Assembly: GCA_032718475.1 (NCBI GenBank) | Contig: JAUCBJ010001473.1 | Span: forward strand, 1-35,329 | Length of the DNA: 35,329 nt | Direction: 5' to 3' | From: Nemertoderma westbladi | Lineage: Eukaryota > Animalia > Xenacoelomorpha | Part shown: positions 5,484 to 33,644 of the stretch, one piece after another | Layout: each line of letters begins with the position of its first letter | How positions within the stretch are numbered: position 1 is the stretch's first letter | The notes under the pieces: generated by a model | Told to the model about the DNA's origin: nothing | Database searches by the model: none | The model's input: the letters and a program-made list of their open reading frames with translations, nothing else | Position numbers and translations under genes: made by a program

Positions 5484-5620
5484 GTAAGTTTATTCTTATT
5501 TGTTGTGAAAGATCTTGTTTATTTTACAGACTAAATAATACAGAGTAAAATATATAAAATAATAATACCTTAATTAATCCGTGTGGGATTTTACAGTAGC
5601 CGGAATTGAGTATATTTGGA

Positions 5621-6211
5621 AGTCAGGTGAGGACCTTCGAATACGTAAGGGAAAGGCATGGGCAGCCTTGAATAGGCTTTCCAGGATTTGGAAGTCACCT
5701 AGAATTAATCGGAAACTTAATGTCCGATTATTTAGAGCAGCAGTAGTTCCAGTACTCCTCTACGGGAGCCCATGCTGGGCTCTAACTGCTGAGGACACCA
5801 AATCTCTGGATGGCACATTCACAAGAATGTTACGCCGGGTACATTGTGTCAAGTACAATGCACACATCTCCAACCAGACACTATATAACATTGGAGGTGT
5901 CTCATTGGTTCCCCCAAGCTTGACACTAGAACAAAATCGCCTCCGCTTTGCAGGACATTGCTTTCGCCGTGAGGACCAGCCAGTGCATAATCTTGTACTT
6001 TGGCAGCCTCATGGAGTGAATAAGCATGGTGGACAGCCCATGACTTTCTTGAGACGCATCTTAAAGGACACTGGCCTTAAAGATGCGGATGATCTAGCAA
6101 ATGTCATGGGTGATAGGGAGTTGTGGCGGTGCAATTTTGTTGACAAGCCGGCACATTATTCTTAAAAATGCAGCTGCAATGCAGCATGCCGATCCTAGTA
6201 GTAGTAGTAGT
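5621..6211 (+). mobile_element. 5'-truncated RTE-clade LINE with (TAG)n tail and 12-bp TSD
   Basis: Encodes KGKAWAALNRLSRIWKS...VLLYGSPCW...RLRFAGHCFR...LVLWQP (post-RT region typical of RTE LINEs). Ends in TAG repeats. Flanked by AGTATATTTGGA at 5609-5620 and 6212-6223. Confidence 0.92.
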
Positions 6212-12916: not shown

Positions 12917-13562
12917 TGTAAGCGGATTCAATTCCACTTCATTACCCACCAGAAAATGGGACTAGTGGCATTTTAGCAATATGTTGGGGATACGAGATTA
13001 CCAATATTAATCTCGCCTCATAACCAACATTGGGGGGGGGGGGGGGACACAAGCCCCAAAGCCACAGAGAAAGGTGAGAGGTCAAACCACCTTGGAGGGG
13101 ATACAGCTAGTAGAGGCTAGCAGCGGAGGGGAAACACTCCCAGGGAGTGCGAAAGTGACAAGTAGTATATTAGCCAATAGTGGGGAGGGAAGCACGTGAT
13201 AGGGAACAGGAAAGCATCCATTGGGTAGAAGGCCAAAGGTAGAGTAGGAGGTAAACCAATATTCAATGTATTAATCATATATTATCTTACATTACTGGTT
13301 TACCGGTCAGTTGTGTTATTCAGTTCAGTGAGTGCAGACCGGTCATAGTTAATGACCGCCGCCGCCATACCGGTAACAATTAATCTGTATTCTCTGCTTT
13401 TATCTAACTACGTGCTATTATCGTCCATGTTAATTAATATCGAAAGACAACAGGAACTTTCACTGTTTTCCCGAAAGGCCTCAGCCAAAGCTAGTAGCAC
13501 GATCCCAGCAGAACGGTGACGCGTACATTTCTAACCCGGTCAGGATCTCCGATCCCGTCACA
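12917..13562 (+). repeat. 5' LTR (LTR-A, 646 bp)
   Basis: TGTAAGCGGATTC...GATCCCGTCACA. Matches 26141-26498 joined to 33350-33644, with roughly 15-20 differences counted by eye. Confidence 0.95.
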
Positions 13563-15200
13563 GTCATTAACTCTACCACCTGCCAATAAACTGTGACTGC
13601 AAGAACAAAGAGATCGAGATGAGCGATAGGGAGCCCCGATTATCAGAGGGAGAGAGGACGCCGCCGCGGACCCCGGACGATACCAACCAAACGATCCGCG
13701 AGGCCACGACGAGACGGTATCGGCCGGCCACGCCAGACTCGCCGATGAGAGACGATCCGGCTACCCAAGCGGAGGGTGGCCGTCAACCACGAGGGAGAGA
13801 CGAGTCGGCGGTCGGGGTAACGAAGTCGCCGGCCAGAGCCACAGGCCGAGGGTGACGGACAGCCCACCGGAACGGCGACGGTGGGGCAACCGGTACGACG
13901 CCGGACGAGGAGAGGAGGAGTCCGCGAAGAGGACGTCGGGACGAGTGATCAGCTACGACGGGCCTACAACGCCACCAAGAAACTGCTCAAGGAGGCCAAA
14001 GCAGGGAGATAGGTAGACCAGCCTAAACTGCATCAGGGGCTAGGTGAGTCGAATAAACATTTTCTATATTTAGTCTGTTTTGGACAGGGAGAACTGGCGA
14101 GTGAGAGAGCAAGGGGGGTCGCCATGGAACTGTCTGAATTGTGGCGATCCGGGGTAATGGAGCCTGAGGTAGTGTATGTAGGGCCTTACTTAGTGGATGC
14201 TAGGGGAATTAAGTTAGTGGGTTGGGCGGAACCGCACGATGGCGAACCCAAGGTTAACCCCGAGGATTCGGTGTCATTGGTCAGTGAGAACCCCAGAAAG
14301 CGGGGGAAAGTTAGTAGGACAGAGATGCGACGGGAGTCCGTCGAGACCAATAAGTCCGCTACATCCTCCGCAAAAGCAAGAAGGTGTTAGAGATCGATCT
14401 GGCGTGTCAACTAGACCTTGTGGCGCTGGATCAGCAGGAGTTGGAGAGGCAACTGGAAGAGGGAACCGCGTTATTAGAGAAAGAGAGAGAGTTAGCGAGG
14501 GAATGTAGAGAGAGGGCCAAGAGGGTGGCGGGAAACTGTAGGGAGCGGGAGGTGAGAGAGATAAACGAGCGCGAGGAGCGGGAGGCGAGAATAGAGAAAG
14601 AGCGCAAAGAAGAAGAAGCGGAAGAGGCAGCGAGGATAGGGAGGGAAACGAACAAACGTAAAGAGCGAGAAGTGAGAGAGGTAGTGAGGGCGGAGAGAGA
14701 AACGAACGAGCATAGAGAGCTGGAGGCAAGGGAGGCATAATTAGCGAACCAACATTTGCGAGAGGATAGAGAGAGAGAGAGAGCGGGAAAGCGTATGCAG
14801 GATGATATGCATGCCCGGTTAAGGGGGCTTATGCAATACCAGGCAAAGCAAAAGCGCCGATTAGAACTGGCGCAGTTGGGATTATCTGAGAGTGAGGCCG
14901 GTTCGCCGTAGTTCGGGTAGTATTTATGAGGAGCCCGAAGTAATGGAAACGTTTGTTAATACCCCACTTACAGGCACCGGGCGACAGACCCAGGACTGGT
15001 ATAACCGTACGGACGGGGGGGAGGGGGGTAATAATAATAATACGTTAGAAGGAATTAATATTAATAGAACCATAGTAGACAACCCTAATCACACCTTTGT
15101 TGCAGGAAATAATATTTTACCCGGTAATAATAACTTTGATTCAAATGTGCAAAATAATCCAAATAATAATATTAATTCAAACGTACAAAATAATCCAAAT

Positions 15201-16010
15201 GACTACACTAACACTAACACTAACCGAAGTAGCGCATAACGTCGCGGTCGAACCTCATTTGCAGCCAGTCACCGGTGAGCAGTTCATCCGACATTCCACT
15301 TCAACCGACGACCAAGCCCGCCTCGATGTGTCAGTCTGCGGTTTCTGGGGTTCCAGGTATCAGAAGATATTCCTGGATGTCTCCATCTTCAACCCCGTAG
15401 CCCCCACGAATGCTGCAATGCCTCTCGCCGATGCCCACCTCCATCACGAGGCCTGCAAGCGCAATCTTTATGACGAGCGGATTCGTGAAATTGAGTTGGC
15501 AACATTTACGCCGCTCATATTCTCGGCGTATGGTGGCTTCTCGCCAACCACGTCTCAGTTCGTGAAGCGACTCGGGATATTACTCTCAGAGAAGTGTGAG
15601 GCACCGTACTCCGAGTGTATTCGTTGGATCCGCCGTGAATAGAGTTTCGCACTCCTCCGCGTGGGTTTAATGTGTCTGCGGGGTGCGCGTTCTGCACGGA
15701 ATCGACCGGTACGCTGCGATACTCCGATACAGATGTCCAACTCCGACACCGACAAGTCGCCGTACCCATAGGCAACTAAATATAAAAAAACCTGTCTGCA
15801 TATCCAGGTTTTGAACTGCGCATCACGACTATTAGGCCTAATTTTAGTAATATACTGGTATTTTCTGATTTTTATGTAGGCCTATATTGTTATTGTTTAT
15901 ACTTGTTACCTAGGCTACGTCAGCTGGTGGTGGGACAATGTTTGTTTTTATATATTACATATATTGATATTAAAATGGAAGTTACAAATTAAAAAAAAAA
16001 AAATAATAAT
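15201..16010 (+). mobile_element. 5'-truncated CRE-clade non-LTR retrotransposon (RLE domain, 3' UTR, A/AAT tail)
   Basis: EPHLQPVTGE...ARLDVSVCGFWG...FLDVSIFNP...E..KRNLY..RIREIELATFTPLIFS..GG...CLRGARS. Poly(A) plus (AAT)n tail. AATAATCCAAAT at 15189-15200 and 16011-16022 is the likely TSD. Confidence 0.88.
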
Positions 16011-17629: not shown

Positions 17630-17907
17630 TGTAACACCCGATATGGACTGGAGTAATTTTGCCTCCACATTGATGAAGTATAACTTATAACTGACAGGGG
17701 AAGGTTGATTTGCAAAAAAATTATTTAGATATACTTATATAATAATATCTCAGCATAACTATCAGTGAGATTATCAAGTGGAGACTGCCGGTGTGACATT
17801 GGTATTCAAACATTCAATAAGCCAACGTGGTGTTAGATAGAACGTGGTGTGAGGTGTTAATAAGCATAACGAAACAAAACCGGTCGGGATCCACTGATCC
17901 CGTCACA
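17630..17907 (+). repeat. Putative second, different LTR (LTR-B) preceding gag copy B
   Basis: Ends CCGGTCGGGATC..GATCCCGTCACA like LTR-A but is unrelated upstream. Candidate start is TGTAACACCCG at 17630; alternative start TGTGAC at 17792. Confidence 0.55.
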
Positions 17908-17950
17908 GTACGAAATACCCAACTGTAAGCTGTGACTGCAGAAAGCAAAG

Positions 17951-20900
17951 ATGAGCAGCCAGGAGCCCCGAGACTTAGAGGGAGAGAGGACACCGCCGCG
18001 GACCCCGGACGATACCAACAACCTAACGATCCGCGAGGCTGCGACGAGACGGTATCGACCTACGACGCCAGATTCGCCGACGAGAGACGATCCGGCAGTC
18101 CAAGAGGAGGACGGCCGTCTACCACCAGGAGGAAGAGACGAGTCGACGCACGACGGCGGTCGAAGTACCGATGTCGCCGGCCAGCCACAGGCCGAGGGCG
18201 ATGGACGGCCCACTGGAACCGCCACGGTGGGGCCGCCGGTACAACGCCGAACCAGGAGGCGAGGAGGAGAGGTCGGCGACGAGGACGTCGGAACCAGTGA
18301 CCGGCTCCGACGAGCCTACAACGCGACAAAGAATCAGCTTAAGGAGGCCAGAGAAGGAGTAAAGATGACCAAGGGAAGTTGAGTCAGCGACTAGGTGAGT
18401 CGAATAAACATTTTAGATACCTAGTTCGCTTCAGACAGGGAGAACTAGCCAGTGAGAGAGCAAGGGGGGTCGCCACCGGACTATTTGAACTGTGGCGATC
18501 CGGGATTATGGAGCCCCAGATAGTGTACATAGGGCCGTATTTAGGGGTGCTAGGGGAGTTAAGTTAGTGGGTTGGGCAGACCCGCACGAGGGCGAATCCG
18601 AGATTAACCCCAAGGATTCGGTCTCGTCGGTTAGCGAGAACCCCGAAAAGCGGGGGAAAATTAGTAGGACAGAGAGGCGACGGGAGTCCGTCGCGACCGA
18701 TAGTCTGCTACATCCTCCGCAAAAGTAAGAAGGATGTTGGAGATAGATCTGGCGTGTCAGCTAGACATTGCGGCGCTAGACCAAAGAGGGTTAGAGAGAC
18801 AACTGAGCGAGGGAACCGCATTATTAGAAAGAGAGAGAGAGAGTTAGCCAGGGAATGTAGAGAGAGGGCCGAGAGAGTGGCGAGAGACTGTAGGGAGTAC
18901 GAGGAACGGGAGGCAGAAATAGAGAACGAGCGTAAAGAGCGAGAGATGAAAGTAGAGAACAAGCGTAGAGAGCGGGAGACGAGAGAGGCGATGAGAATTG
19001 AGAGGGAAAATAATGAGCGCAAGGAGCGTGAGCTGAGTCGGCTTGAGAGGGTTGCGAGAGAGGCAGAGTTGGCCGAGCAAAGTTTACGAGAGGATAGAGA
19101 AAGAGAGAGAGAGGGAAAGCGTATGCGGGATGATATGCATGCCTGGCTAAGGGGGCTTATGCAATATCAAGCCAAGCAGAAGCACCGACTAGAACTGGCG
19201 CAGTTGGGATTATCAGAGAGTGAGGCTGGCTCGGGTAGTATTTACGAGGAGCCAGAAGTAGTGGAAACGTTTGTTAATATCCCACTTACAGGCGCCGGGC
19301 GACAGAACCAGAACTGGTGTAACCGTACGGGCGGGGGGGGGGGGGGGGTAATAATAATACGTTAGAAGAAATTAATATTAATAGTACCGTAGTAGACAAC
19401 CCTAACCAAACCTTTATTGCAGGAAATATTTTACCCGGTAATTAAAATTTAAATACAAATAATTCAAATACTAATTCCTATTCAAATATTCAAAATAATC
19501 CGAATAATTCTAATTCAAATATTCAAAATAATCCGAATAATTTAAATTCAAATATAGAAAATAATTCGAACAATAATTGAAATTTAGAAAATAATAATAA
19601 TTCTAATTTAAATAATTTAAATAATAATATTGATAACTGGGCTATTAATACTAATATAGGAGACACAGGTGGTCCGGCCAACCGAAGCCTGCAAGGCAAC
19701 GTAGTTAATACGCAGGGATTAGTCGCAGAGTACATACCGGTAGGTAGGCAAGAAGTGGATAGGCCTACATCGGTACCAGCACAGCAGCATGACTATAATA
19801 TGCAGGGACATAACATATATCCAGGGGAGGGGAGAGTTATTGCGGATAGATGTATGGGCCCCAATATATTAACATCAACCCCAGTACCAAACATAATGCC
19901 GGTGGGGGGGGGGGGGGGGGCAGGGTAACATTCCCCCATTACAATATCAACTCAAACAGGAATAAGAACATCGAACCCCCTGGACGAGAACAGGTCATGC
20001 GATACGGAAATATGGAGGGGGCCATTACCGCCAATTATATATCCGACACAAGTTAAGTCAACAGGCCCGACGGGCGGACCGCACCCAACAGGAGAATCTG
20101 TACAGCATCCTTCGAACCCATTGGAGCACAGGCAATGGGAATGGCTACACTAATCGATGCACTGAAGACCAGGATCGAGTTACCACCAGTCGAGCCATTT
20201 AAATTCGACGGAAGTAGGCTGGAAGAATACCTGCAATTTCGGCGCATGTACAGCAACGAGATATTAAGTAAGAACCTGACGCAGGCGGAGTGCCTAAAAT
20301 ATCTACAGGTATATACAGGAGGCCCAGCGTACGACATCGTGAGGCAGTATCAGGGCATCGGGGGCGGCTTCACGACTGCATGGCGGGCCCTAGACAGGGA
20401 ATACGGATACCCAGCCAAGATCATCTGGCAAACCCTGAGGGGTATAACATCGGATGGCCTACAGGATAACCCCGTCAGCATAAAGACGTTTGCGAACAAA
20501 GTCAAGAAGGCGTTAATCATGCTGAAGACGCTAGACGCGCCATACGAACTCAACGCATCTAATAACATCACCACAATAGCGCAGGCACTGCCGATCTGGC
20601 TACGGAGCAAGTGGAGGAAGATCGCCTTCTCCACTCAGGAGAAGAAAGGTGCGGCGCCAGGGCTAGAGGAAATGTCAAACTTCCTCAACTATGAAGCAGA
20701 GTTGATTACAGACCCAGTCTATAGTGAGGATAGTTTGGGGAAGGCGCCAAAGACCGAATACAACAGGCCTAAACCCGAACACAATCCTGCAGATCCATTC
20801 ACGAGAGTAAGACAGTTGCTACCACACGCAGCCACACAGGGGGCTACAAGCCCACAGTTAGCTGGGAGTAGGGCCACACCGTGGTAGGGACAGAAAGAAA

Positions 20901-21190
20901 ATAACAACACAAATAAACATAATCCCAACATAACCAGTAGGCCGAGTCCAGATAACCAAAACACTAAATCGGTAGACATAAACCTACGCGCGATACGTGA
21001 AGGACTATGCAGGGAATGCTATAATCCAGGATTCGAATGTCAATTACATCGGGACGGAACCCATAAGACCATGAGTTGTAAGCACTGGCAAGTGTTGCCT
21101 AACAAGATCGTATAGCCTACACAGACGCAAACGGACTATGTCATCGTTGTGTGGTAGAAGGACACAGATCCGGAGAGTGTGGAGAAACAG
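17951..21190 (+). pseudogene. gag: BEL/Pao gag, copy B: leader, coiled coil, Asn-rich segment, capsid (DUF1759-like) and CCHC knuckle
   Basis: ELPPVEPFKFDG...EYLQF...CLKYL..YT.GPA...AW.AL.REYG...LPIWLRSKW (20135-20887) is a typical BEL Gag capsid. GLCHRCVVEGHRSGEC lies at ~21134-21180. Several frameshifts and stops. Confidence 0.9.
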
Positions 21191-21239
21191 CAGTAGGAGA
21201 CAACGAGACTGGAGGCCAAACAATGGCTACAAGCACGAC

Positions 21240-21770
21240 AGGAGTAAGAAGAAAGAGGAAAGTACTACTCGGAGTAGTACCAGTGAAGATATCAAGAAAG
21301 GGCGGTCGATCAGTTACAACATTAATGCTGGTCGACAGCGGAGCAGCCTTCACGCTGGTGGAGAATTGGGTGGCCGAGGAGATAGGGTTACAGACGAGGC
21401 CGAGTAGGTTGGCGGTAACTACTGTCTCAAGTAAAGACGAAGTCCTGGAGATGAGGATGGGACGGTGCAAGATATCAGCGATCGCACCGTGATGTGACTA
21501 TGGGGCCACCATCGACCCCATCCAGGCGATAGAATCGATAAATATCAACGCCAGGCGACCAACCAACATTGAGGTCGAACAATATAGATTCCTGGACAGT
21601 ATCGATTTCACAATGCCAGAGGTGGACGTTAGGAAGGTATCCATTATAGTAGGAATGGACTGCCCGATGGCCCACAAGAGAATGCAGACTGTCTTCGGCG
21701 AAGACAGACAGTGGGATCCGACGGCGATCCTCACGCCGTTCGGATGGACGCTTAGCGGCCCAGTTAAAAC
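21240..21770 (+). pseudogene. BEL/Pao aspartic protease region
   Basis: VLLGVVPVKI...MLVDSGAAFTLV (catalytic DSG), then SIIVGMD and PTAILTPFGWTLSGP, the BEL-specific post-protease motif. One in-frame TGA at 21490-21492. Confidence 0.9.
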
Positions 21771-21996
21771 CAAGATTCCATCCAGGGTGACGGAGACATC
21801 AGGGTGCATGTTACCAGGCACCGTAGACGCAGAAGACAAAGAGAAGAAACCGGAGATGGTAGATGAGCCAGATGGGGAAGTAACAGTAGGAGAGTGGGCG
21901 GAGGAGAATGGATTTGACACGGAAGACTTAGAGGCAATGGGATGGAACAAGGGTCCCAGCAAGTATCGGTATGGGGATGGAGAGGAGCGGACGGCG

Positions 21997-22121
21997 AGAT
22001 GTCCAGAGGACAACCCGGAGGAGTGGACGGTGAGATGTCCGGAGGACATCAGTCCGGAGGAGTGTCCGGAGGAGTGTCGGAAGGAGTGTCCGGAGGAGTG
22101 TCCAGAGGAGTGTCCGGAAGA
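21997..22121 (+). repeat. 12-bp repeat encoding (CPEE)n
   Basis: GAGTGTCCGGAG units; the protein reads SPEECPEECRKECPEECPEECPEE. Confidence 0.9.
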
Positions 22122-22269
22122 GACGCCGGTCTGGTTGAGAGGCATACCGACAAAGGGGAGGTCGAGTAAGAAGACATGGTGGAAAGAGAGAGGATGTGGG
22201 AAGATTAAACCAGGGACAGAGAAGCCCATGATGAAACGTGACAAAGTGGGAAAGTGGGAGAGGGCGTGT

Positions 22270-22811
22270 TGTACACGCATAAGGAGGTGGCAGAGTGCGA
22301 AAGGGCATTAAATGGTAAGCCATTACGTGTACCAAAGGATGACTGGGAATCATCGAGGGCTTTAATGCCGGCGCACATATTAAGGGGGAGGCCAGCGGAG
22401 GTGGCATGTACCAGTAAGAATGACATGAGGGGCGGCATTCTACCGCCAAACGATGACAAGATGAAGGGTGGCACTTTGCCACCAGGGGACGACCACGACG
22501 AGATCAGTAACATGACAGAAATACCCGATTTAAGGATGGAAGAGAAGGGAAGGTCAGTTCCAAGAGAGTTGGAATTGACAAGGAGAGTGGGGTGACGAAT
22601 TAGAGGACCTACAGGGGGGCAGTGGGAGGGTTGCCTGCTGGAAGAATCACCCATAGGTTGTCCAATAAGTTGGACTGAAGGGGGGGGGGGGGGCGAAGAT
22701 GGAAGAGTCAGATCCGTAGGAGTGAGAATAGGGGGCAAAATAGGAGCAAAAGATAGGAAGACCTACAGGAGGGCTGTAGGAAAGTGCTGCCTATTAGAAG
22801 GGGCACCGTAG
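22270..22811 (+). pseudogene. Remnant of BEL integrase C-terminus and DUF5641-like tail
   Basis: AECERALNGKPL...LMPAHILRG matches 'E.E..LNSRPL...LTP.HFL.G'. GEDGRVRSVGVR...YRRAVGKCCLLE matches the terminal 'G.DG.VR.V...Y.RP..KL' motif. Confidence 0.8.
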
Positions 22812-22975
22812 AGTTTAGTCGTCCAAATGTTGGACTGAGGGGGGTGGAAATGAGGGTGAGACGCCCTTCCCACACATAATATAAAAAAAAATAAATTTAA
22901 TTAAAATTAAGAAGTGAGATAGTAGAAAGTTAGAAAGTAATAGTAGTAGATAGTACGTAGCACTAAGTAAGTAGT

Positions 22976-23603
22976 CAGAAGTTAGGGAGTGTGGTACATT
23001 GACATACCACGAGAGTAGTAGGGTACATAGTACCATAGGCAGAAGTTAGGGAGTGTGGTACATTGACGTACCACGAGAGTAGTAGGGTACATAGTACCGT
23101 AGGCAGAAGTTAGGGAGTGTGGTACATTGACATACCACGAGAGTAGTAGGGTACATAGTACCATAGGCAGAAGTTAGGGAGTGTGGTACATTGACGTATC
23201 ACGAGAGTAGTAGGTTACATAGTACCGTAGGCAGAAGTATAGGGAGTGTGGTATATTGACATATCACGAGAGTAGTGGCAGGGTACATAGTACCGCTGGT
23301 AGAAATTAGAAGTATAGGGAGTGTGGTATATAAACATACCTCGAGAGTAGTGGCAGGGTATATAGTACCGCTGGTAGAAGTTAGAAGTATAGGGAGTGTG
23401 GTATATAAACATACCACGAGAGTAGTGGCAGGGTATATAGTACCGCTGGTAGAAGTTAGAAGTATAGGGAGTGTGGTACATAAACATACCACGAGAGTAG
23501 TGGCAGGGTATATAGTACCGCTGGTAGAAGTTAGAAGTATAGGGTATAGGGAGTGTGGTATATAAACATACCACGAGAGTAGTGGCAGGGTACGTAGTAC
23601 CGT
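22976..23603 (+). repeat. Tandem array: four 64-bp units followed by about five 75-bp units
   Basis: CAGAAG at 22976, 23040, 23104, 23168 and 23232. AGAAGTATAGGG at 23233, 23308, 23383, 23458 and 23533. Confidence 0.95.
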
Positions 23604-23994
23604 TAGAGTTAGAAGTTAGAGTTAGTAAGAGTTAGTAGTAAGAGAGTAGAGAATACAGTATATAAATATTCCATAAGAGTAATAGTAGGGTACATAGTAC
23701 CGTAGAGGTTGTGGGCACAGAGAGCGCCACGAAAAGAGAGGGGGGCACGTGGGTACAGCAGGATAGACCGTGTAGGCCGCACGAGACAGACTACTGTACT
23801 GCAAGGCCCATAGAGTAAGTTAGGATGTTTGATACAGGGCCAGGAGGCCACCTGGTACAGACTAGCACAGTAGAGAATAGCTAGTCTACCCTGTATACAA
23901 ACTATAGGGGTTATCTAAGTAAAAATAACCCACATAAGCGATAATAGCATACCAATAAAAATTAAAGTAGTATTAGAAGTAAATCCGACAAATT

Positions 23995-25415
23995 ATGGCA
24001 ACAGTAAGTAAAAGATTTTAGAACATAATAAAAGTAACTGACAGACGTACCGAAGTATCCGAGAGAACCACCGAGAAAGGACTGAATGAGGTTCATAGAG
24101 TCTGTAAACAGGGGAGGATACATGGTCCTAGACGACGAGGGGACTGTGGAGGACAAAGAGGGTTCGAGAAGAGGGTCGGTGGGATCGGCTAGAACCATAC
24201 CACTACTGCATTTGGCTGCGCCAAATGGAGACATATTCCTATTCGATATAGGAACGTACGGCAAGAAGAGCGGGCCGAAGTTAAACAGGTTGCCAAGGGC
24301 GGTGCAAGACCTAGTAAGGAAGAAGACAACGGTGAAAGTGGGATCGGCGATCCGCGACGATGCGGAGAGGATCGTCGGACCGGAGACCCCCAACCTCCTG
24401 GACATGCAAGCAGTCTATATGGCCATGACAGGGCCAGACGGGTTGCGATTGGTAGAGAAGACAGGACATTGAGGAGCAGTGGCGATGGGCCAGCTCATGG
24501 GGCTCGTCTGCCACAAGCCGATGGACTGGGGTAAGTTCCGGGAGGAGTACGGAGCGGAGCTGGCGAACTCGCTGAAGTGGGGAGCGAGGCCAGGGAAACA
24601 GGAGGTGTATCAGTTCCGGAGAGGAGCGATAAAGATATATATCAGAAGAGATATATCCTACAGGAGGATTGGATAATGATAGGTTTACTAAACCTATTCA
24701 TGGCTGTGGTTATCGGAAGAGAGCCGACGGCGTTTCTTCTATCAGGATCACCCCTGAACTACAGAAGGGGACGAGTTGCCTCTACTGCCGCGAGTCGAGC
24801 CATAGGATGGGAGCATGTCCGAGGCTGCACAACTGCTGTTCTAAGTGTAACTTCCGAGGGCACTATGGGCGCCAGTGCGACTGGATGGACAACGAGGAGA
24901 AGTTTAAGATCTTCGAGGAGTGGGCCGACGTCAGTGTTATGACGCGACAGAGGATGAAGGCCCAGGAGTTCCGGTGGGGTTTCTTCAACATCAATCAGGA
25001 AGCCCATCTGGAGATTATCAAGAGGAGACTGCCAATCACATACCAGGAGGTAGCGACAGCGGCGTCGCATGGAGGAGTCATCAACACGCAGAGGTATTTG
25101 GATAGATGGACGCCAGAAAACAGAGGAGAGTTTAGGGATTTTCTGGTGGAACACGTGCCGCAAACCATGAAAATGATCTTGTGGGAAGCTACCAGGGGGA
25201 AGCAGGAGGGGCATTTGGAAAGGCCACCTGGAAAGCGTTACCGGGAGTTAATAACACCAGCACCCAAAGAATCGACCACGGGAATTAGCAAGGCAGTAAC
25301 GGCGAGAATGAGGAGTCTCAGAGAGGACAAACCAGAGGGAAGGAAGCGGCCCAGACAGGACGATGATAGAGGGAATGAACTAAGATGGTTCCCGAAGATG
25401 GGAGGAGCGAACTAG
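23995..25415 (+). pseudogene. Extra ORF: DEDDy-type (WRN/RNase D-like) 3'-5' exonuclease plus two CCHC zinc knuckles; disrupted
   Basis: MVLDDEG (ExoI-like DxE), LLHLAAPNGDIFLFDI, LPRAVQDLVRKKTTVKVGSAIRDDAERI (ExoII-like KVG..I..D), LLDMQ, W..RP. Then CLYCRESSHRMGAC and CSKCNFRGHYGRQC. Split across ORFs 24086-24472, 24479-24676 and 24669-25415. Confidence 0.75.
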
Positions 25416-26102
25416 GACTCGGTGAGGGAGATGTGCGCGTGCCTGGAAGGCACCACATGTGAAATAATACGAACTCCTAAGTGCAAAATAATTAAGTGCA
25501 ATTAGTATGTACGTATGTAATAATCAATATAATTAGAATATAACTAAAATGAATATAATCAAAGTAAGTACTATAGTCATAAATAACCTTTTTCCAACTA
25601 GCTAGTGGGACTGGGGACCAAATGACTATGACAGGAGGACGGGACAATAGATGAATCACACTTCTTGAGTGCGACGGCACAAAAAGGGGGGGGTGGGGCG
25701 AGGCTCGTCAGGGGTGAGTGGAGTGAAACAAGCATGGGTTGAGTATAGGAATATGAGAGAAGTATGGAGAGGAAGTGTTGTGAGAGGAGTGCAATTCAAG
25801 TGTGGGGAGCGAGCAGTAAGAGAGCGAGTAAGGGACAACAGGGTCCGTGAGAGAAAGAGTAGAGTGAGATTAGAGTGAATTCAGAGCGAAGTCATATAAA
25901 ATTGTGTGGAAAGAGAGTCCACAATTGTCTCGAACAGAGATGTCAGATATCTTGGTGCAACATAGCTCGCGATTGCACCAAGGAGGAGTAGCAATAACAT
26001 ACCCAGGGGGGGCGGCCTGGAAAGCCAACCCCGAGAAAAGAACCCCACCCTACACCCGATAGTAGATTGGGTTCCAGCGGAATTGAAGCGCACTTGAGGT
26101 TG

Positions 26103-26140
26103 ATGCTATCTTCTCACCGGGAAGATAGCATGGGAGGGAG
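26103..26140 (+). promoter_or_regulatory. 11-bp hairpin followed by the polypurine tract
   Basis: ATGCTATCTTC-TCACCGG-GAAGATAGCAT, then GGGAGGGAG directly abutting the TG of the 3' LTR at 26141. Confidence 0.9.
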
Positions 26141-26498
26141 TGTAAGCGGATTCAATTCCACTTCATTACCCACCAGAAAATGGGACTAGTGGCATTTTAG
26201 CAATATGTTGGGGATACGAGATTACCAATATTAATCTCGCCTCATAACCAGCATTGGGGGGGGGGGGGGGCGACACAAGCCCCAAAGCCACAGAGAAAGG
26301 TGAGAGGTCAAACCACCTCAGAGGGGATACAGCTAGTAGAGGCTAGCAGCGGAGGGGAAACACTCCCAGGGAGTGCCAAAGTGACAAGTAGTATATTAGC
26401 CAATAGTGGGGAGGGATGCACGTGATAGGGAACAGGAAAGCATCCATTGGGTAGAGGGCCAAAGGTAGATTAGGAGGTAAACCAATATTCAATGTATT
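26141..26498 (+). repeat. 3' LTR, left part
   Basis: Matches 12917-13272 and stops at the CRE insertion. Confidence 0.95.
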
Positions 26499-26722
26499 GA
26501 TAAAGTATTGATTGGTGGGTTTTTTGACCATGAAAATGGGGTACGTTACGTACTGTACATCAGTATACCACAGTACAGCACAGCAGTACAGTCTTTGATA
26601 CTGCCGACAGCCAGACTGCTTGGCGCCAAACAAACGAGGCAAACATAACGGCGTTTTGATATTGCCGACAACATTTAACCTTCGAGGATTGCGGACATTG
26701 CTAGTTACCAACCAGCACAGGG

Positions 26723-29700
26723 ATGCCCTTTTGTTGCGGATGTGGTATAAACGGAACTTGCAAACGCGGTGCGTGGTGCGCCTGCGTGAGGGCAAGCCGA
26801 GAATGTTGGGACTGCGTTCCCGGCAAGCGAAGACGGTGCATGAACGGCGGAGTCGGTTCGCCGACTACCCAGTCTCAACCCAACCCGATTAGTGATGGAC
26901 AACGAAACCTGCCGGCGCCAGCGATCACGGCCTTCTCCCAGCCGTCTCCATCCGAGTTGGAGAGGGGTGACGATTCCCTCGACGATACGTTGTTGGACAT
27001 GTCTGACAGCGATTGCTCTTTTCACTCGCTGAGCGACACGTTGGTGCCTCGATGTTCCCCTTACCGGGACAGTAAGTCGGCCACATCGAGCCCTGAAGGC
27101 AGAGGGTTGAGTCCGGTTGTCGGTTTGTCCGTCCACATCCACGCGGGTCCGCCTGTCGGTTTGTCTGTCACCACGAGCACGTCTGTCGGTTTGTCTGTCC
27201 CCACGGTTGGGCCGTGCAAGGGTCCCCCAGACCAGATGGGTCCCCCAATTCACAAGGGTCCCCCTGACCAGTTGGGTCCCCCTGACCAGTTGGGGCCCCC
27301 AGACCATTTGGCCCCCCCAGACCAGTGGAGTCCCCCCGTTCACAAGGGTCCCCCCGTTCATAAGGGTCCCCCAGACCAGTTGGGTCCCCAAGACCAGTTG
27401 GGCCCCACAGATCAGCTGGGCCCCCCCGTTAATAAGGGTTCCCCAGACCAGTTGGGTCCCCCCGTTCATAAGGGTGCCCCAGATCAGTTGGGTCCCCCCG
27501 TTCATAAGGGTCCCCCAGACCAGTTGGGTCACCCCGTTCATAAGGGTCCCCAGCCCCCCGTTCATAAAGGTCTCCCAGACCAGTTGGGTCCCCCCGTTCA
27601 TAAGGGCCCCCCTGTTAATACGGGCCCCCCTGTTCAGTTGGGTCCCCCAGACCAGTTGGGTCCCCCCGTTCACAAGGGTCCCCCCGTTCAGTTGGGCCCC
27701 CCAGACCAGTTGGGTCCCCCTGACCAGTTGTGTCCCCCAGACCAGTTGGGTCCCCCAGACCAGTTGGGCCCCCCCGTTCATACGGGTCCCACCGTTCATA
27801 ACGGTCCCCCAGATCAGTTGGGTCCCCCCGTTCATAAGGGTCCCCCAGACCAGTTGGGTCCCCCCTTTCATAAGGGTCCCCCAGACCAGTTGGGTCCCCC
27901 CGTTCATAAGGGTCCCCCCGTTCACAAGGGTCCCCCATTTCCCTTGGGTACCCCAGACCAGTTGGGTCCCCCCGTTCACAATGGTCCCCCATTTCAGTTG
28001 GGTCCCCCAGACCAGATGGGTCCCCCTGTTTACAAAGGTGCCCCCGTTCAGTTGGGCCCCCCAGACCAGTTGGGTCCCTCAGACCAGTTGGGTCCCCCCA
28101 TTCAAAAAGGACCCCCCGTTCACAAGAGTCCCCCCGTTCAGTTGGGTCCCCCAGACCAGTTGGGTCCTCCCGTTCACAAGGGACCTCCCGTTCAAATGTG
28201 TCCCCCAGACCAGTTGGGCCCCCCCCCGACCAGTTGGGCCCCTCCGACCAGTTGGGTCCCCCCATTCATAAGGGTCCCCCAGACCAGTTGGGTCCCCCCG
28301 TTCATAAGGGTCCCCCAGACCAGTTGGGTCCCCCTATACAGCTGGGACCCTCAGACCAAATAGGTCCCCCTGTTCAGTTGGGTCCCCCCATTCATAAGTG
28401 TCCCCCCGCTAAGGTGGGTCCCCCTGACCAGTTGGGTCCCCAAGACCAGTTGGGCCCCCCACATCAGTTGGGTCCCCCAGACCATTTGGGTCCCCCACAC
28501 CAGATGGGTCCCCCCGTTTATAAGGGTCCCCCCGTTCAGTTGGGTCCCTCAGATCAGTTGGGTCCCCCAGACCAGTTGGGTCCCCCCCTTCATATGGGTC
28601 CCCCTGTTCAAAGGGGTTCCAGTACCTTTGACGACACATCGCCCTTCGGCTCACACTGGACTCCCGAAGCACCCCGCAACTCGGACCCCCAAGACCTGAT
28701 GATGAGGGCGTTTGGGGCCCCCTTGGTGGGTAAAGGTGCTCCGCCAGATGGATTGCTCCACCAGTGGAGGAGGGCCACTCAATTACGCGGCTCCAAGTAT
28801 AGACAGCCTGGGGGGGCCGTGGGTCGTGATATGGTTGAGCTGTTGACGTCGGAAGCCACAGCTTTTGTGGCGGGTTTGAGACATAACGTTGCGAACGCGC
28901 GTTCCGAACGGATCCTCCTCGCAGACTCGCTGCTCCTTCACCGGGACCCTAGGGTCATCAAAGCCGCAGATATCCGACGCCTCCTCATCCGCCGACTTGA
29001 AATGTGGAGGTCAGGGCGGCTTGAGGCGCTGCTTCAGGAGGCGGAGCGCTGCTCCAGTAAAGTTGGATCTGGAAGGCAGACCAAAGCCAAGACCCCGGAT
29101 GAGGACAAAGACCACACAGTTCGAGTTTTTACTCGCCTGATGTTGGAGGGCAAAGTGAGGAGCGCGGTTCGGTGGGTCACAAATCGTGAGGGTGGGGGGG
29201 TGTTAGACCCTGATGATGACGCCATCGATGCTGAGGGAAGAAAGGTTAAGGTCATCGACCTTCTTCGTGCCAAGCATCCCCCTGCCTCCCCACCTCCACC
29301 TGAGGCCCTTATCCAACTCGATGAGGACCTCCCTGTCTGGGTCGACGTCGACGTTACTGCCTCCCACATAGAGTCCTCCGCGCGTCGACTCCATGGAGGC
29401 GCTGGACCTGCCGGCTCCGATTCAACCCGCTGGGGCGATTACCTCCTTCGTTACGGCGCCCACAGCGAACGCCTCCGGGACGCGGTTGCTGAGATAGCAC
29501 GTTCCCTTTCCAACGCTGTCGTACCCTGGGAGTCGGTGCGCGCCCTGATGTCCTGTCGTCTGATCGCCCTGGATAAGTGCCCGGGGGTCCGCCCAATCGG
29601 CATCGGGGAGTGTTTACGGCGGATTCTCGGCAGATCCCTGGCCGAAGCAACGGGGGATGACGTCACCGCGACCTGTGGCGCCGAGCAGCTCTCCGCCGGC

Positions 29701-31545
29701 ACGTCAGCCGGCGTCGAGGCCGCCGTCCACACGATGGCGGAGTTGTTTGAGGACCACAAGGAGGACGGCTGGGGAGTTCTCCTCGTCGACGCGTCCAACG
29801 CGTTCAATTCGATGAACCGAACGGCCGCGTTGTGGAACGCTCGTCAGCTGTGGCCCAGGTGCTCACTGTTTTTGTTTAACTGCTACAGGGGGCACAGTAT
29901 GTTAATTATTAGAGGGACCAATGTGGTTCTATTTAGCGAGGAGGGAACCACCCAGGGCGATCCCCTTGCGATGCTGGAGTACTCGACCGGTATACTCCCC
30001 CTCATCCACCACCTGAGAAAGCCCCCCCTCATTCAGAACTGGTTTGCCGATGACTCAGCGGCAGCTGGCAGACTCTTCCTGATCCTGGAATGGTTCAGGG
30101 AACTGAAACGTCACGGCCCCACCCTCGGCTACTATCCGGAACCCACCAAGAGTTACCTCGTCGTAGCTCCACAGTACGAGGAGGAGGCCCGTAGAGTTTT
30201 CGCTGGCCAGGAGATAAATATAGTAACGGGACACCGTTTCCTGGGCGGGTATCTTGGTGGGACTGCAGAGCGATTGGGTTACGTTCAGGCCAAAGTTGCT
30301 GCGTGGGTCGCATCGGTTGATCGTCTCTCAGAGATGGCCGAGACCCAACCCCAAGCCGCGTTCGCTGCCATGGCCGGCTCCCTCCAACGGGAGTGGGCTT
30401 ACCTCCAGCGCGTAACCCCAGACTGTGTCGATGAGTACCAGGTGCTGGAGGACGCGCTGACTGAGCGTTTCCTTCCCGCAGTGTTTGGCGGACCGATCTC
30501 CCCAAACGAGCGTTGTCTGTTCGGCCTCTCACCTCGCACTGCAGGTCTCGGACTGCGGAATCCGGTGTCCGAGGCGGCCCACTCGTTCGATATATCGCGA
30601 GCTGGAACCCGGACCATCGCGCAGTCGTTATTGGGAGATCGGCAGTTCTCGCTCACGGACCACCGTAATTGTTTACAGCGAGTGCGGAAAGAAGGACGGG
30701 ACCAACAGCTCGGAAGGGAGAGGGCTAGTCTGGAGGCCGTGCTGGACGAGTTCCCACAGGGCCGCCGTCGGACGGTCGAGCGCGCCGCCAACTTCCGCTC
30801 CAGTGGGTGGATTTCCTCCCTCCCAATAGCCGAACACCAACTTGATCTCTCCCCCATGGAGTTCCGGGATGCGCTGGCGATCCGGTACGGCCGCCCCCTG
30901 GCGGCGGTGCCGAGTCGGTGCGATGGGTGCGGGGCCGCCTTCGATTTAAACCACGGTTTAAATTGTAAAAAAGGCGGCCTCGTAATCCAAAGACACAACG
31001 AGCTCCGGGATGTGGTCGGTGATCTCGCGGCGCGCGCGTTCGGGCCCCGGAACGTCACCCTCGAGCCGGTGGTCCGCGAACAGCAGGGAGTAGACGGAGC
31101 AGCAGGTCTCCGTTGTGATGTGGGGATTCGGGGTGCGCTAAACCCGCAGACCCAGGCGTTGATCGATATTCGGGTTGTAAACCTTGACGCCGGGTCATAT
31201 GCGGGTCGCACCCCAATGTCTGTCCTGGAGTCGGCCGAGGACCAGAAGAAGAGGCTGTACGCGGACGCAGTGACGGCCCGACGGGGCGACTTCTCGCCGT
31301 TCGTCGCCTCATGCGACGGAGTTCTCGCGCCGCAAGCGAACCATCTTCTCCGTGTGGTGGCAGACCGGCTGCACCGATCGTGGGGGCGGCCCTATAGCGT
31401 CACAATGGGCTGGATCCGTACGCGGGTTCAGTTGGCCATTATTAGAGGGGCCACCCACTGTCTGCGGGGCTCCCGCACCAAGTGGAGAAGCGCTCGGGGG
31501 CCGGATGATGGCGCAGGGCTGCCAGAAAGCTGGCAACCGGTGTAG
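26723..31545 (+). CDS. CRE polyprotein (~1600 aa if one frameshift in a C-run at ~28219-28227 is corrected): Cys-rich N-terminus, GPP repeats, RT, CCHC finger, restriction-like endonuclease
   Basis: MPFCCGCGINGTCKRGAWCACVRASRECWDC; RLIALDKCPGVRPIGIGE; LLVDASNAFN; GTTQGDPLAM; WFADD; CDGCG...HGLNC...RHNELRD; RCDV...DIRV...E..KKRLY...FSPFV. ORFs 26723-28363 and 28198-31545 carry the same repeat frame on either side of the C-run. Confidence 0.92.
27217..28612 (+). repeat. 18-bp coding minisatellite (~75-80 units; PDQLGP / PVHKGP / PVQLGP)
   Basis: Units CCAGACCAGTTGGGTCCC and CCCGTTCATAAGGGTCCC are interspersed throughout. Confidence 0.97.
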
Positions 31546-31738
31546 TACTGTGGTACAATGTAGGTGTATAATAATATATAAACATAAAAACAATCAATTC
31601 AATTTATATTTACTGTGTTTGGTGGTGGTGCAGTTTTAACTGTTTGTTGTTTAAGTTTTTAAATTTCCCGCGATTATTTAGTAGTAATTACACTGTGTTC
31701 TAGATCAATAAAATGGGACACTATATTCAATGTATTAA

Positions 31739-33349
31739 GGGGGGGGTACACCCCCCTATGGACCTTTTTTGCAAATGGCTATAATTTCTGCTTGTGTGTA
31801 ATTTTGTATATTTTATACCTTTCGGGGGATTAACATATGGCCAAAGATTGGGTTCAAAAAAAAAATTTTCAAATTTGCGTCGCCCTCTAGCGGCCACCAG
31901 CGAAATTGTTAATTTCACTAAAAACACTACTAGTCTCACAATTTTGGACGAAAATTTTCTAAACTTAGTTTTTCTGAATCAGCATCCTCGGCTCCACAAA
32001 ACTGATCGGTTACATTTTTATTTAGGTCTTAAATATTTTTTAAATATTATTAACTAATATTAATTATTACTTAATAGATATTAACTAATTTCAAGAAATT
32101 AATATGGCACAATTCAAAATTCTAACCGATAACTTTTGACCAAAACCCGAAAAGAAATCAAACAAAAAAAAAATTTCGAAAATTGGTTAAGAAATGGCTG
32201 AGTAGTAGTATTTTGAATGTGAAAAATACAATTCCGAGATAAACGCATTTAAAGTTTAAGAACAATATATTTCAAATGTTCCCGCTATTTTCAGTACTGG
32301 TATCTCTTATTTTTCCATTGGTTATCCCCTATCCATATTTTGTGATTTCTCAATGGATTTCATGAAATTTGGTTCAAAAAAACCCCTACCCACTTTTAAC
32401 AACCTGTTAAAATAATTTTAGAGTGCTTGCCAAAAAACACTTCGCGCAGCACGTGAACAAATTTCATTTTGGCGAATTGATTTGATCGCATACTATTTCG
32501 TCATTTAGTAATAAATAGTCATGGAATAATGAGACAACCTTAAGAAACATTCAAAATTATATAAAAATTTCCACATAATTTTATAATAAGCCTTTACACA
32601 GAACATTAAGCTTTGCGCAGCACGTGAAACCTTCGCGCAGCACGTGAGACATTTGCGCAGCAGGTGAAGGTTTCACGGAGCACTTAAATTCTTCATAAAG
32701 CACGTTAATTAATCGAGCACCTCGGAATGCTTTTTGATCAGAATGAGAAGCCTTCACGCGGCACATGAAAAGTTTATGCTGCACATGAAGACTTCGCGCA
32801 GCACGTGAATTATTCTCAGAGCCTGCGGAATTTAAAAAAAATAAGTTTATGGTTGTTTCCCAGAATAATTATTACTAGCTATTGTTATATGATTGTTCAC
32901 ATTTGTTATTACTAGTAGAAAACTAGTCCATTGGACAACTGTTCAATAAGTAATACAAAACTCACAAATATCTATTAAATATATATTAATTAAAATTTGA
33001 CGGACATGTTGACAGACAGACAGACATACAAACAGACAGACAGACAGACAAACTGAGAGACAGACTGAGATACAGACATAGTGATTAGATAATTCCAAAT
33101 ATTAAAACAGACATCGACATTAAGAAAAATATTAATGGTAAACATTTCAGATTGCTTATTTTATGCCCTTTTTAATATTTCGACGGACAGACAGACAGAC
33201 ATACAGACGGAAAACCAGCCATTACTCGAGAAGTAAAAGAGATCTCGCTAAGCCGTTTCCAGATTTGAAATCCGCATTAAATTCTACTCTAGATGAAATA
33301 AAAAAACAAAAAATGAAAATTTTGACCTGAGGGGGGGTGTACCCCCCCC
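31739..33349. mobile_element. Non-autonomous DNA transposon with 18-bp TIRs and TTAA TSD (Kolobok-like)
   Basis: TTAA|GGGGGGGGTACACCCCCC ... GGGGGGTGTACCCCCCCC|TTAA. The empty site in the 5' LTR has a single TTAA (GTATTAATCATA). Purine-start termini with a TTAA TSD fit Kolobok rather than piggyBac. No transposase ORF. Confidence 0.88.
32440..32810. repeat. Internal short repeats CTTCGCGCAGCACGTGAA within the DNA transposon
   Basis: Copies near 32440, 32611, 32631, 32651 and 32792, plus degenerate ones. (GACA)n tracts at ~33010-33080 and ~33183-33210. Confidence 0.85.
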
Positions 33350-33644
33350 TTAATCATATATTATCTTACATTACTGGTTTACCGGTCAGTTGTGTTATTC
33401 AGTTCAGTGAGTGCAGACCGGTCATAGTTAATGACCGCCACCGCCATACCGGTAACAATTAATCTGTATTTCTGCTTTTATCTAACTACGTGCTATTATC
33501 GTCCTATATTAACTAATATCGAAAGACCAACAGGAACTCGTTCACTGTTTTCCCGAACGGCCTCGGCCAAAGCTAGTAGCACGATCCCAGCAGAACGGTG
33601 ACGCATACATTTCTAACCCGGTCGGGATCTCCGATCCCGTCACA
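33350..33644 (+). repeat. 3' LTR, right part
   Basis: Matches 13271-13562, ends GATCCCGTCACA and is followed by the TSD TTCTG. Confidence 0.95.

Follow-up and report, generated by a model that had tools for sequence, protein, structure and literature searches.

A conserved exonuclease-like third gene in a BEL/Pao-derived retroelement family of Nemertoderma westbladi

A conserved gene with an exonuclease-like domain, ORF3, occupies the third-gene position of a BEL/Pao-derived element family. Such genes have been published for other retroelement groups, and none was found for BEL/Pao in the literature searched. The copy described here lies in a contig of N. westbladi, and all coordinates are positions in the window, that is, the whole stretch of 35,329 nucleotides that was analysed. 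ORF3 and the parts of its element are all on the forward strand. We put the probability at roughly 0.4 that ORF3 encodes a WRN/EXD-type 3'-5' exonuclease, probably fused to CCHC knuckles, which would trim RNA and most likely host small silencing RNAs.

The element starts with a 646-bp 5' LTR (12917..13562, TG...CA) that has a TTCTG target duplication at its left. A 6.85-kb non-LTR element has inserted into the 3' LTR (26141..33644) at about 26500/33352, and TTCTG follows this LTR. The two LTRs share 631 of 645 aligned letters. The TG...CA ends, the match between the LTRs and the 5-bp duplication on both flanks therefore indicate that the unit integrated whole, with a length of about 13.9 kb when the 3' insertion is excluded. 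The LTR length is within the 0.2-1.2 kb of BEL/Pao elements, and a polypurine tract (PPT, 26132..26140) lies immediately 5' of the 3' LTR. A BEL-type gag is present as well (20057..20884), identified by DUF1759 (Pfam E 2.2e-9, above cut-off), a domain that we take to be a marker of BEL/Pao. It is followed by a gag knuckle and an aspartic protease with the motif DSG (21103..21489; Asp_protease_2, E 1.2e-6), by a stretch that turns low-complexity (21493..22960), and, directly upstream of ORF3, by a tandem array (22971..23700) whose units measure 64-82 bp and are predicted to form hairpins.

The remaining enzymes of a complete pol were not detected. RT, RNase H and integrase had no Pfam match among 29 ORFs of the element, taken from 21480-23000 and from its 5' and 3' parts, and none of their motifs appeared in three frames of 21760-23990. 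Among all 34 ORFs scanned against Pfam, 33 had no family and one gave a weak RT match, which belongs to the nested non-LTR element. The gap between the protease and the repeat array is only about 1.2 kb and is increasingly low-complexity. The position of the primer site (13563..13572) also departs from BEL/Pao elements, as there is no TGG of tRNA type within 25 nt of the LTR, so that the 18-nt tRNA-Arg or tRNA-Gly primer site of that group is lacking. With these three enzymes undetected, this copy is a non-autonomous BEL/Pao-derived element. The earlier note had described a BEL/Pao element with a pol remnant. Its LTRs, PPT, gag and protease agree with that class and the remnant exists as the protease and the stretch after it, but with RT, RNase H and integrase undetected the element is better called a non-autonomous derivative.

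Several other features of the element were observed. Units of the array at 22971-23700 fold better than shuffled sequences (z -2.2 to -3.1), and the array could be an internal promoter, a translation or packaging signal, or a binding site for the knuckles; Rfam had no match anywhere in the element, repeat array included. The 5' internal region is doubled (13533-15200 and 17877-19505, 78% identity), and each segment begins with the 3' end of an LTR and contains a Glu/Arg-rich ORF and an Asn-rich stretch, which suggests a chimeric element in which two subfamilies share a single pair of LTRs. The non-LTR element at 26501-33351 has an ORF (27910-31542) with a weak RVT_1 match (E 0.002), a cluster of Cys and His towards the C-terminus, and motifs of a restriction-like endonuclease, presumably CRE-like; a long 18-bp repeat of GPPDQL type precedes this ORF. 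A short 3' fragment in the first 5' segment (15202-15770) had no Pfam match and looks, on visual inspection, like the terminus of such a non-LTR element. Two decayed, oppositely oriented 3' ends of another LINE-like element were present at 205-1490 and 5578-6205 (DUF6451, weak, E 0.002).

ORF3 lies between the repeat array and the PPT, ahead of the 3' LTR, and is interrupted in this copy. The probable N-terminus (23995..24085) is broken by stops at 24019-21 and 24083-85 and a frame change near 24040. The exonuclease-like domain from ExoI to W..RP follows (24086..24634), with an in-frame stop at 24470-72 and the motifs LDDEG (24128-24142), LLHLA (24203-24217), IFLFDI (24233-24250), LPRAV (24290-24304), KVGSAIRDD (24335-24361), LLDM (24395-24406) and WGARP (24578-24592). 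After a frame change near 24635, the next frame encodes the ExoIII helix and a linker (24643..24761), including RYILQED at 24649-24669 (YILQED 24652-24669), with Tyr at 24652-54, Glu at 24664-66 and Asp at 24667-69. A last frame change near 24762 leads into a third frame, open to 25412, with both CCHC knuckles (24777..24818 and 24837..24878, each CX2CX4HX4C) and a C-terminal region to which no family was assigned (24879..25415), predicted to be helical with a basic tail and ending at the stop 25413-15. Across six frames of the whole window, CX2CX4HX4C occurs only three times, in the two ORF3 knuckles and once in gag (21139). Three-frame translation thus recovered the motifs and both knuckles in the place that the earlier note had given them, in the ORF3 position, and the disruption it had mentioned was located as three stops and three frame changes. 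The ATG at 24086 was considered as the ORF3 start but is doubtful, with most of the aligned contig depth differing there. An HRDC domain after the exonuclease was also sought with Pfam in 24633-25412, with no match, in a copy from which a stretch at 24762 appears to be missing.

Related copies of ORF3 were found in four DNA runs under one organism label, which represent at most three samples and three studies, one of them possibly the source of the window; no RNA run was among the matches listed. The segment 23700-26140 aligned to 4806, 3195, 3398 and 40 contig pieces in the four runs, mostly 80-99% alike, which covered 30, 30, 30 and 24 of 30 bins and the whole of ORF3 in three runs. Overlapping diverged pieces connect ORF3 with the PPT by way of the 3' untranslated region. 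Among the best-supported rows (the best 40 of 663 and the best 40 of 120), 50 of 70 differences are synonymous relative to the 25-29% expected, a share that is a count over rows representing non-independent events and not a dN/dS. Four rows outside the scored segments and one at a stop were left out of the count. By part, again in the best-supported rows, the synonymous differences are 18 of 29 in the exonuclease-like part, 6 of 7 in ExoIII, 11 of 12 in the knuckles (24762-24890) and 15 of 22 in the C-terminal region. The breaks in this copy differ from much of the aligned depth (about 99% at stop 24083-85, 56-70% at stop 24470-72 and 39-51% at the 24635 shift), although differing depth is no measure of copy share. 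Because diverged pieces cover the whole ORF and synonymous differences are in excess, ORF3 is a conserved, selected gene of a many-copy family that is broken in this copy, and purifying selection on it is supported by the pattern of differences between copies. The thousands of diverged pieces and the 50 of 70 synonymous differences in the best-supported rows rule out a one-off captured host fragment, which the earlier note had named as a refutation should the segment be found in only this copy. Some contigs in three runs join 24549 to 25747-25759 and so skip about 1.2 kb from the middle of the exonuclease-like domain to the 3' untranslated region; deleted ORF3 derivatives therefore exist in the family.

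Searches without a prior target returned no exonuclease for ORF3. Pfam, which the earlier note had proposed as a check against DNA_pol_A_exo1, assigned no family to the X read-through up to W..RP, a query that ends before ExoIII and stayed below the cut-off of that model. NCBIfam and PHROGs had no exonuclease match, and searches of PDB sequences, phage tblastn and two longer-protein searches gave nothing relevant. Among 1.84 billion protein representatives there was no true homologue; five matches were all TPR repeats with short chance likeness and were rejected. Metagenome and viral contig scans with the exonuclease part found no related locus, and the sole locus for the knuckle part was discarded, since only 24 residues matched, by chance, and the surrounding DNA looked bacterial and gave no sign of an exonuclease. 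Single sequences modelled with AlphaFold reached a pLDDT of 33 for the exonuclease-like part and 44 in a second model, too low for a fold to be read; Foldseek gave no match, and VIA a best Z of 3.7.

A targeted test gave a different result. A bacterial motif led to 120 loci, 75 of which yielded the domain, and four of four checked were PF01612; their profile ranks WRN, mut-7 and EXD2 first in PDB. The X read-through matched a 38-sequence alignment at 87% (P 4e-6, residues 33-109). In a further test, the ExoIII piece was added behind an X and compared to a 41-sequence diverse profile, where hhalign gave 93.5% (E 2.3e-7) over 130 columns from ExoII to ExoIII. Shuffled sequences reached no more than 25.1 in hhalign (112 shuffles), where ORF3 scored 49.1, and no more than 10.5 bits in hmmsearch (5000 shuffles), where it scored 19.3. 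The ORF3 domain was also the top match of the exonuclease profile across all six frames of the window. These match values (P 4e-6 to 2e-7) are pairwise, would be only marginal in a blind library search, and come from profiles that are mostly bacterial. An RNase D profile built from 32 bacterial sequences reached only 0.9% in hhalign and fell below shuffles in hmmsearch, and with RNase D sequences added to a mixed profile the match fell to 71%; E. coli RNase D itself aligned in one 40-residue pairwise stretch (E 3e-4). Because the RNase D profile fails where the WRN-type profile matches, the likeness of the domain thus appears to be to the WRN/EXD/mut-7 side, as judged by mostly bacterial profiles. 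The description in the earlier note, WRN/RNase D/mut-7-type, is accordingly narrowed to WRN/EXD/mut-7 and loses RNase D as a group.

The predicted catalytic positions are partly canonical. Two D-x-E candidates exist for ExoI, D16/E18 (24131-24139) from global hhalign and D23/E25 (24152-24160) from MAFFT, and D16/E18 is favoured because of its hydrophobic strand. The ExoII Asp that follows KVG (D92, 24359-24361) falls in an invariant column of the alignment. At ExoIII, QKRYILQEDW aligns to QxxYAATDAW, with Glu at Y+4, where Asp is canonical in Y-x3-D, and Asp at +5. The earlier note had left ExoIII ambiguous between YIRRD and RYILQED; the alignment and the synonymous differences in the RYILQED frame (6 of 7 in the best-supported rows) decide for the latter and rule out YIRRD. 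With Glu at Y+4, the label DEDDy does not hold in its canonical YxxxD sense. We call the domain DEDDy-like and place it short of canonical PF01612 membership because it scores below the Pfam cut-off and has Glu at ExoIII. None of the 70 differences in the best-supported rows touches the codons of D16, E18, both ExoII Asp residues, the Tyr, the Glu at +4 or the Asp at +5.

Beside the 5' LTR, the 10 nt at 13563-13572 are the exact reverse complement of LTR positions 13347-13356, a length that 63 of 20000 shuffled LTRs reach. Together with the absent tRNA-type site, this complement is a possible Tf1-like self-priming signature and would make these 10 nt a candidate self-primer site. The predicted pairing, about 1.0 at first, is only 0.02 when the folded sequence extends into the downstream leader, and a competing stem of the LTR end with the leader is present in both 5' segments. 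The second 5' segment has no comparable LTR complement (5 nt).

In the reading that we prefer, the CCHC knuckles would grip single-stranded RNA and feed it to the active site, as in Trypanosoma brucei RNase D (TbRND), and the exonuclease-like domain would trim the RNA 3' end by two-metal catalysis with Glu replacing the ExoIII Asp. The likeliest target would be the small silencing RNAs that the host directs against the element, which would make ORF3 a counter-defence gene. Host small RNAs are ranked first since DEDDy genes turn up repeatedly in unrelated mobile elements that replicate in different ways, a pattern that may suit a function directed at the host better than a part in any single step of replication. 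The 3' methyl of mature piRNAs blocks many trimmers, which counts against a piRNA-trimming role. The exonuclease-like domain and the two knuckles are likely to form one chain. At 24762-24767 the contigs of other copies, coming from the left or from the right, run out into unlike sequence as loose ends (13 contigs in X3; 2 in X4, median 139 letters), and no piece among those listed bridges the point; because of this break, this copy seems to lack a stretch here. The same loose ends would also be expected if the exonuclease-like domain and a knuckle protein were two separate products, joined here only by deletion, which we consider quite unlikely given that both sides are adjacent on the sense strand with the same synonymous excess, and that a layout of exonuclease plus CCHC exists in TbRND.

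The same enzyme might instead be carried into the particle by its knuckles, act there on the element's own nucleic acid and trim a self-made RNA primer or other 3' ends back to a duplex. This is a tentative alternative, suggested by knuckles that are nucleocapsid-like, though their best PDB nucleocapsid match (2bl6) has an E of only 3.5, by the complement of the primer site to the LTR where a tRNA-type start is lacking, and by the proposal of Rodriguez et al., in the passages of their report on ORF3, of 3'-end processing of element RNA (PMC5408684). The loss of that pairing with the downstream leader, its absence from the second 5' segment and the position of ORF3 outside Gag-Pol speak against it. 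We find it unlikely that the fold is kept while catalysis is weak or dead, leaving a protein that, like EXD1 or Maelstrom, would bind RNA as a decoy or scaffold. Inactive DEDD derivatives do serve in piRNA pathways, as is stated in part of the same report (PMC5408684), and the Glu at ExoIII, the two ExoI registers, the long inserts and the score below the Pfam cut-off are consistent with such a binder; an acidic residue is nevertheless present at or beside every catalytic position, and the catalytic codons are untouched in the best-supported rows when ExoI is read as D16/E18. Least probable, and very improbable in our estimate, is that ORF3 is real and selected while its exonuclease likeness is chance. 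The empty blind searches and the drop of the match to 71% could be read in this way, but seven motifs are in the right order, the alignment continues across the frameshift into QxxY...W, and the real scores are far above those of 5000, 112 and 86 shuffles. A more specific form of the exonuclease reading is possible though doubtful, namely a self-priming, RT-less BEL/Pao lineage that retains gag and protease and has independently captured a WRN/mut-7-type exonuclease, fused to nucleocapsid-like knuckles, as a Nibbler-like trimmer that destroys host piRNAs or finishes the element's own primer. If true, an animal retrotransposon would here carry a gene for an enzyme that serves counter-silencing or priming.

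An exonuclease as the third gene of a BEL/Pao-derived element, in a subgroup apart from the RNase D-like rotifer genes, would suggest that retroelements have repeatedly and independently taken up RNA trimmers. Relative to the neutrality described for the rotifer genes, the synonymous excess makes this family the more suitable one in which to study the role of such genes, and it makes testable whether animal retrotransposons carry enzymes against small-RNA silencing. No exonuclease ORF was found in BEL/Pao elements in the published literature, a search whose scope excluded subscription journals, Repbase and supplements. The word exonuclease is absent from the main text of PMC3118150 and PMC13524379, and such ORFs may be present among the element sequences that PMC3118150 gives in its supplement.

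Among known systems, Belpaoviridae (PMC8742986) resemble this element in their LTRs (646 bp here), a DUF1759 gag, a protease, a PPT and an extra gene in the env position. They differ in that this copy has no detected RT, RNase H, integrase or tRNA primer site, is about 13.9 kb long and carries a third gene that is not env-like, whereas the ICTV profile gives BEL/Pao third genes only as env-like and of unknown function (PMC8742986). The domain itself shares LLxLA, LP..L..L, KVG..I.DD, W..RP and Q..Y...W, in this order, with WRN, EXD2 and mut-7 (Nibbler) of PF01612. Identity to this group is about 22%, the score is below the Pfam cut-off, and the Glu at Y+4 and inserts near ExoI and before ExoIII set ORF3 apart from it.

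DEDDy exonucleases have been taken up by other mobile elements, according to the relevant passages of the reports on Dada DNA transposons, in which the domain is inside the DDE transposase (PMC3706591), and on citrus and pistachio ampeloviruses, closteroviruses with a WRN-class exonuclease gene (PMC8297929). As described there, these are a DDE transposase and plant RNA viruses, and not an LTR-element ORF3 with knuckles. In TbRND (PDB 7C42/7C45), the closest parallel in domain layout, a 3'-5' exonuclease domain is likewise followed by CCHC fingers, and the sections of that report on the C-terminal fingers state that these grip single-stranded RNA and increase both its binding and its cleavage by the exonuclease domain (PMC7797062). 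The same sections describe a cellular enzyme of the RNase D group with four fingers that trims guide-RNA U tails, whereas ORF3 has two knuckles and a C-terminal region of no assigned family, belongs to a mobile element and is only likely to be a fusion.

The closest parallel in position is ORF3 of the bdelloid rotifer LTR retrotransposons Juno and Vesta, and the statement of the earlier note that extra DEDDy ORFs occur in such elements agrees with the passages of PMC5408684 that describe them; they report DEDDy ORFs on rotifer Athena/Terminon elements as well, and the rotifer ORF3 finding recurs in the corresponding parts of reviews (PMC5718144, PMC6431247, PMC6338049). As in those passages, ORF3 here is a third ORF of its own that follows pol and precedes the 3' LTR, with DnaQ-like motifs and a putative function, and one catalytic Asp is replaced by Glu, here at ExoIII and there at another site. 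Juno and Vesta are described as having a full pol and as not being BEL/Pao, whereas of pol only the protease was detected here. Their ORF3 is RNase D-like with DEED, while the third acidic residue here is Asp and the match is of WRN/EXD type; the passages name a Cys-His-Cys motif and no knuckles, where two CCHC knuckles are present here. Compared by description only, Juno and Vesta ORF3 showed no clear departure from neutrality (PMC5408684), whereas the family described here has a clear synonymous excess.
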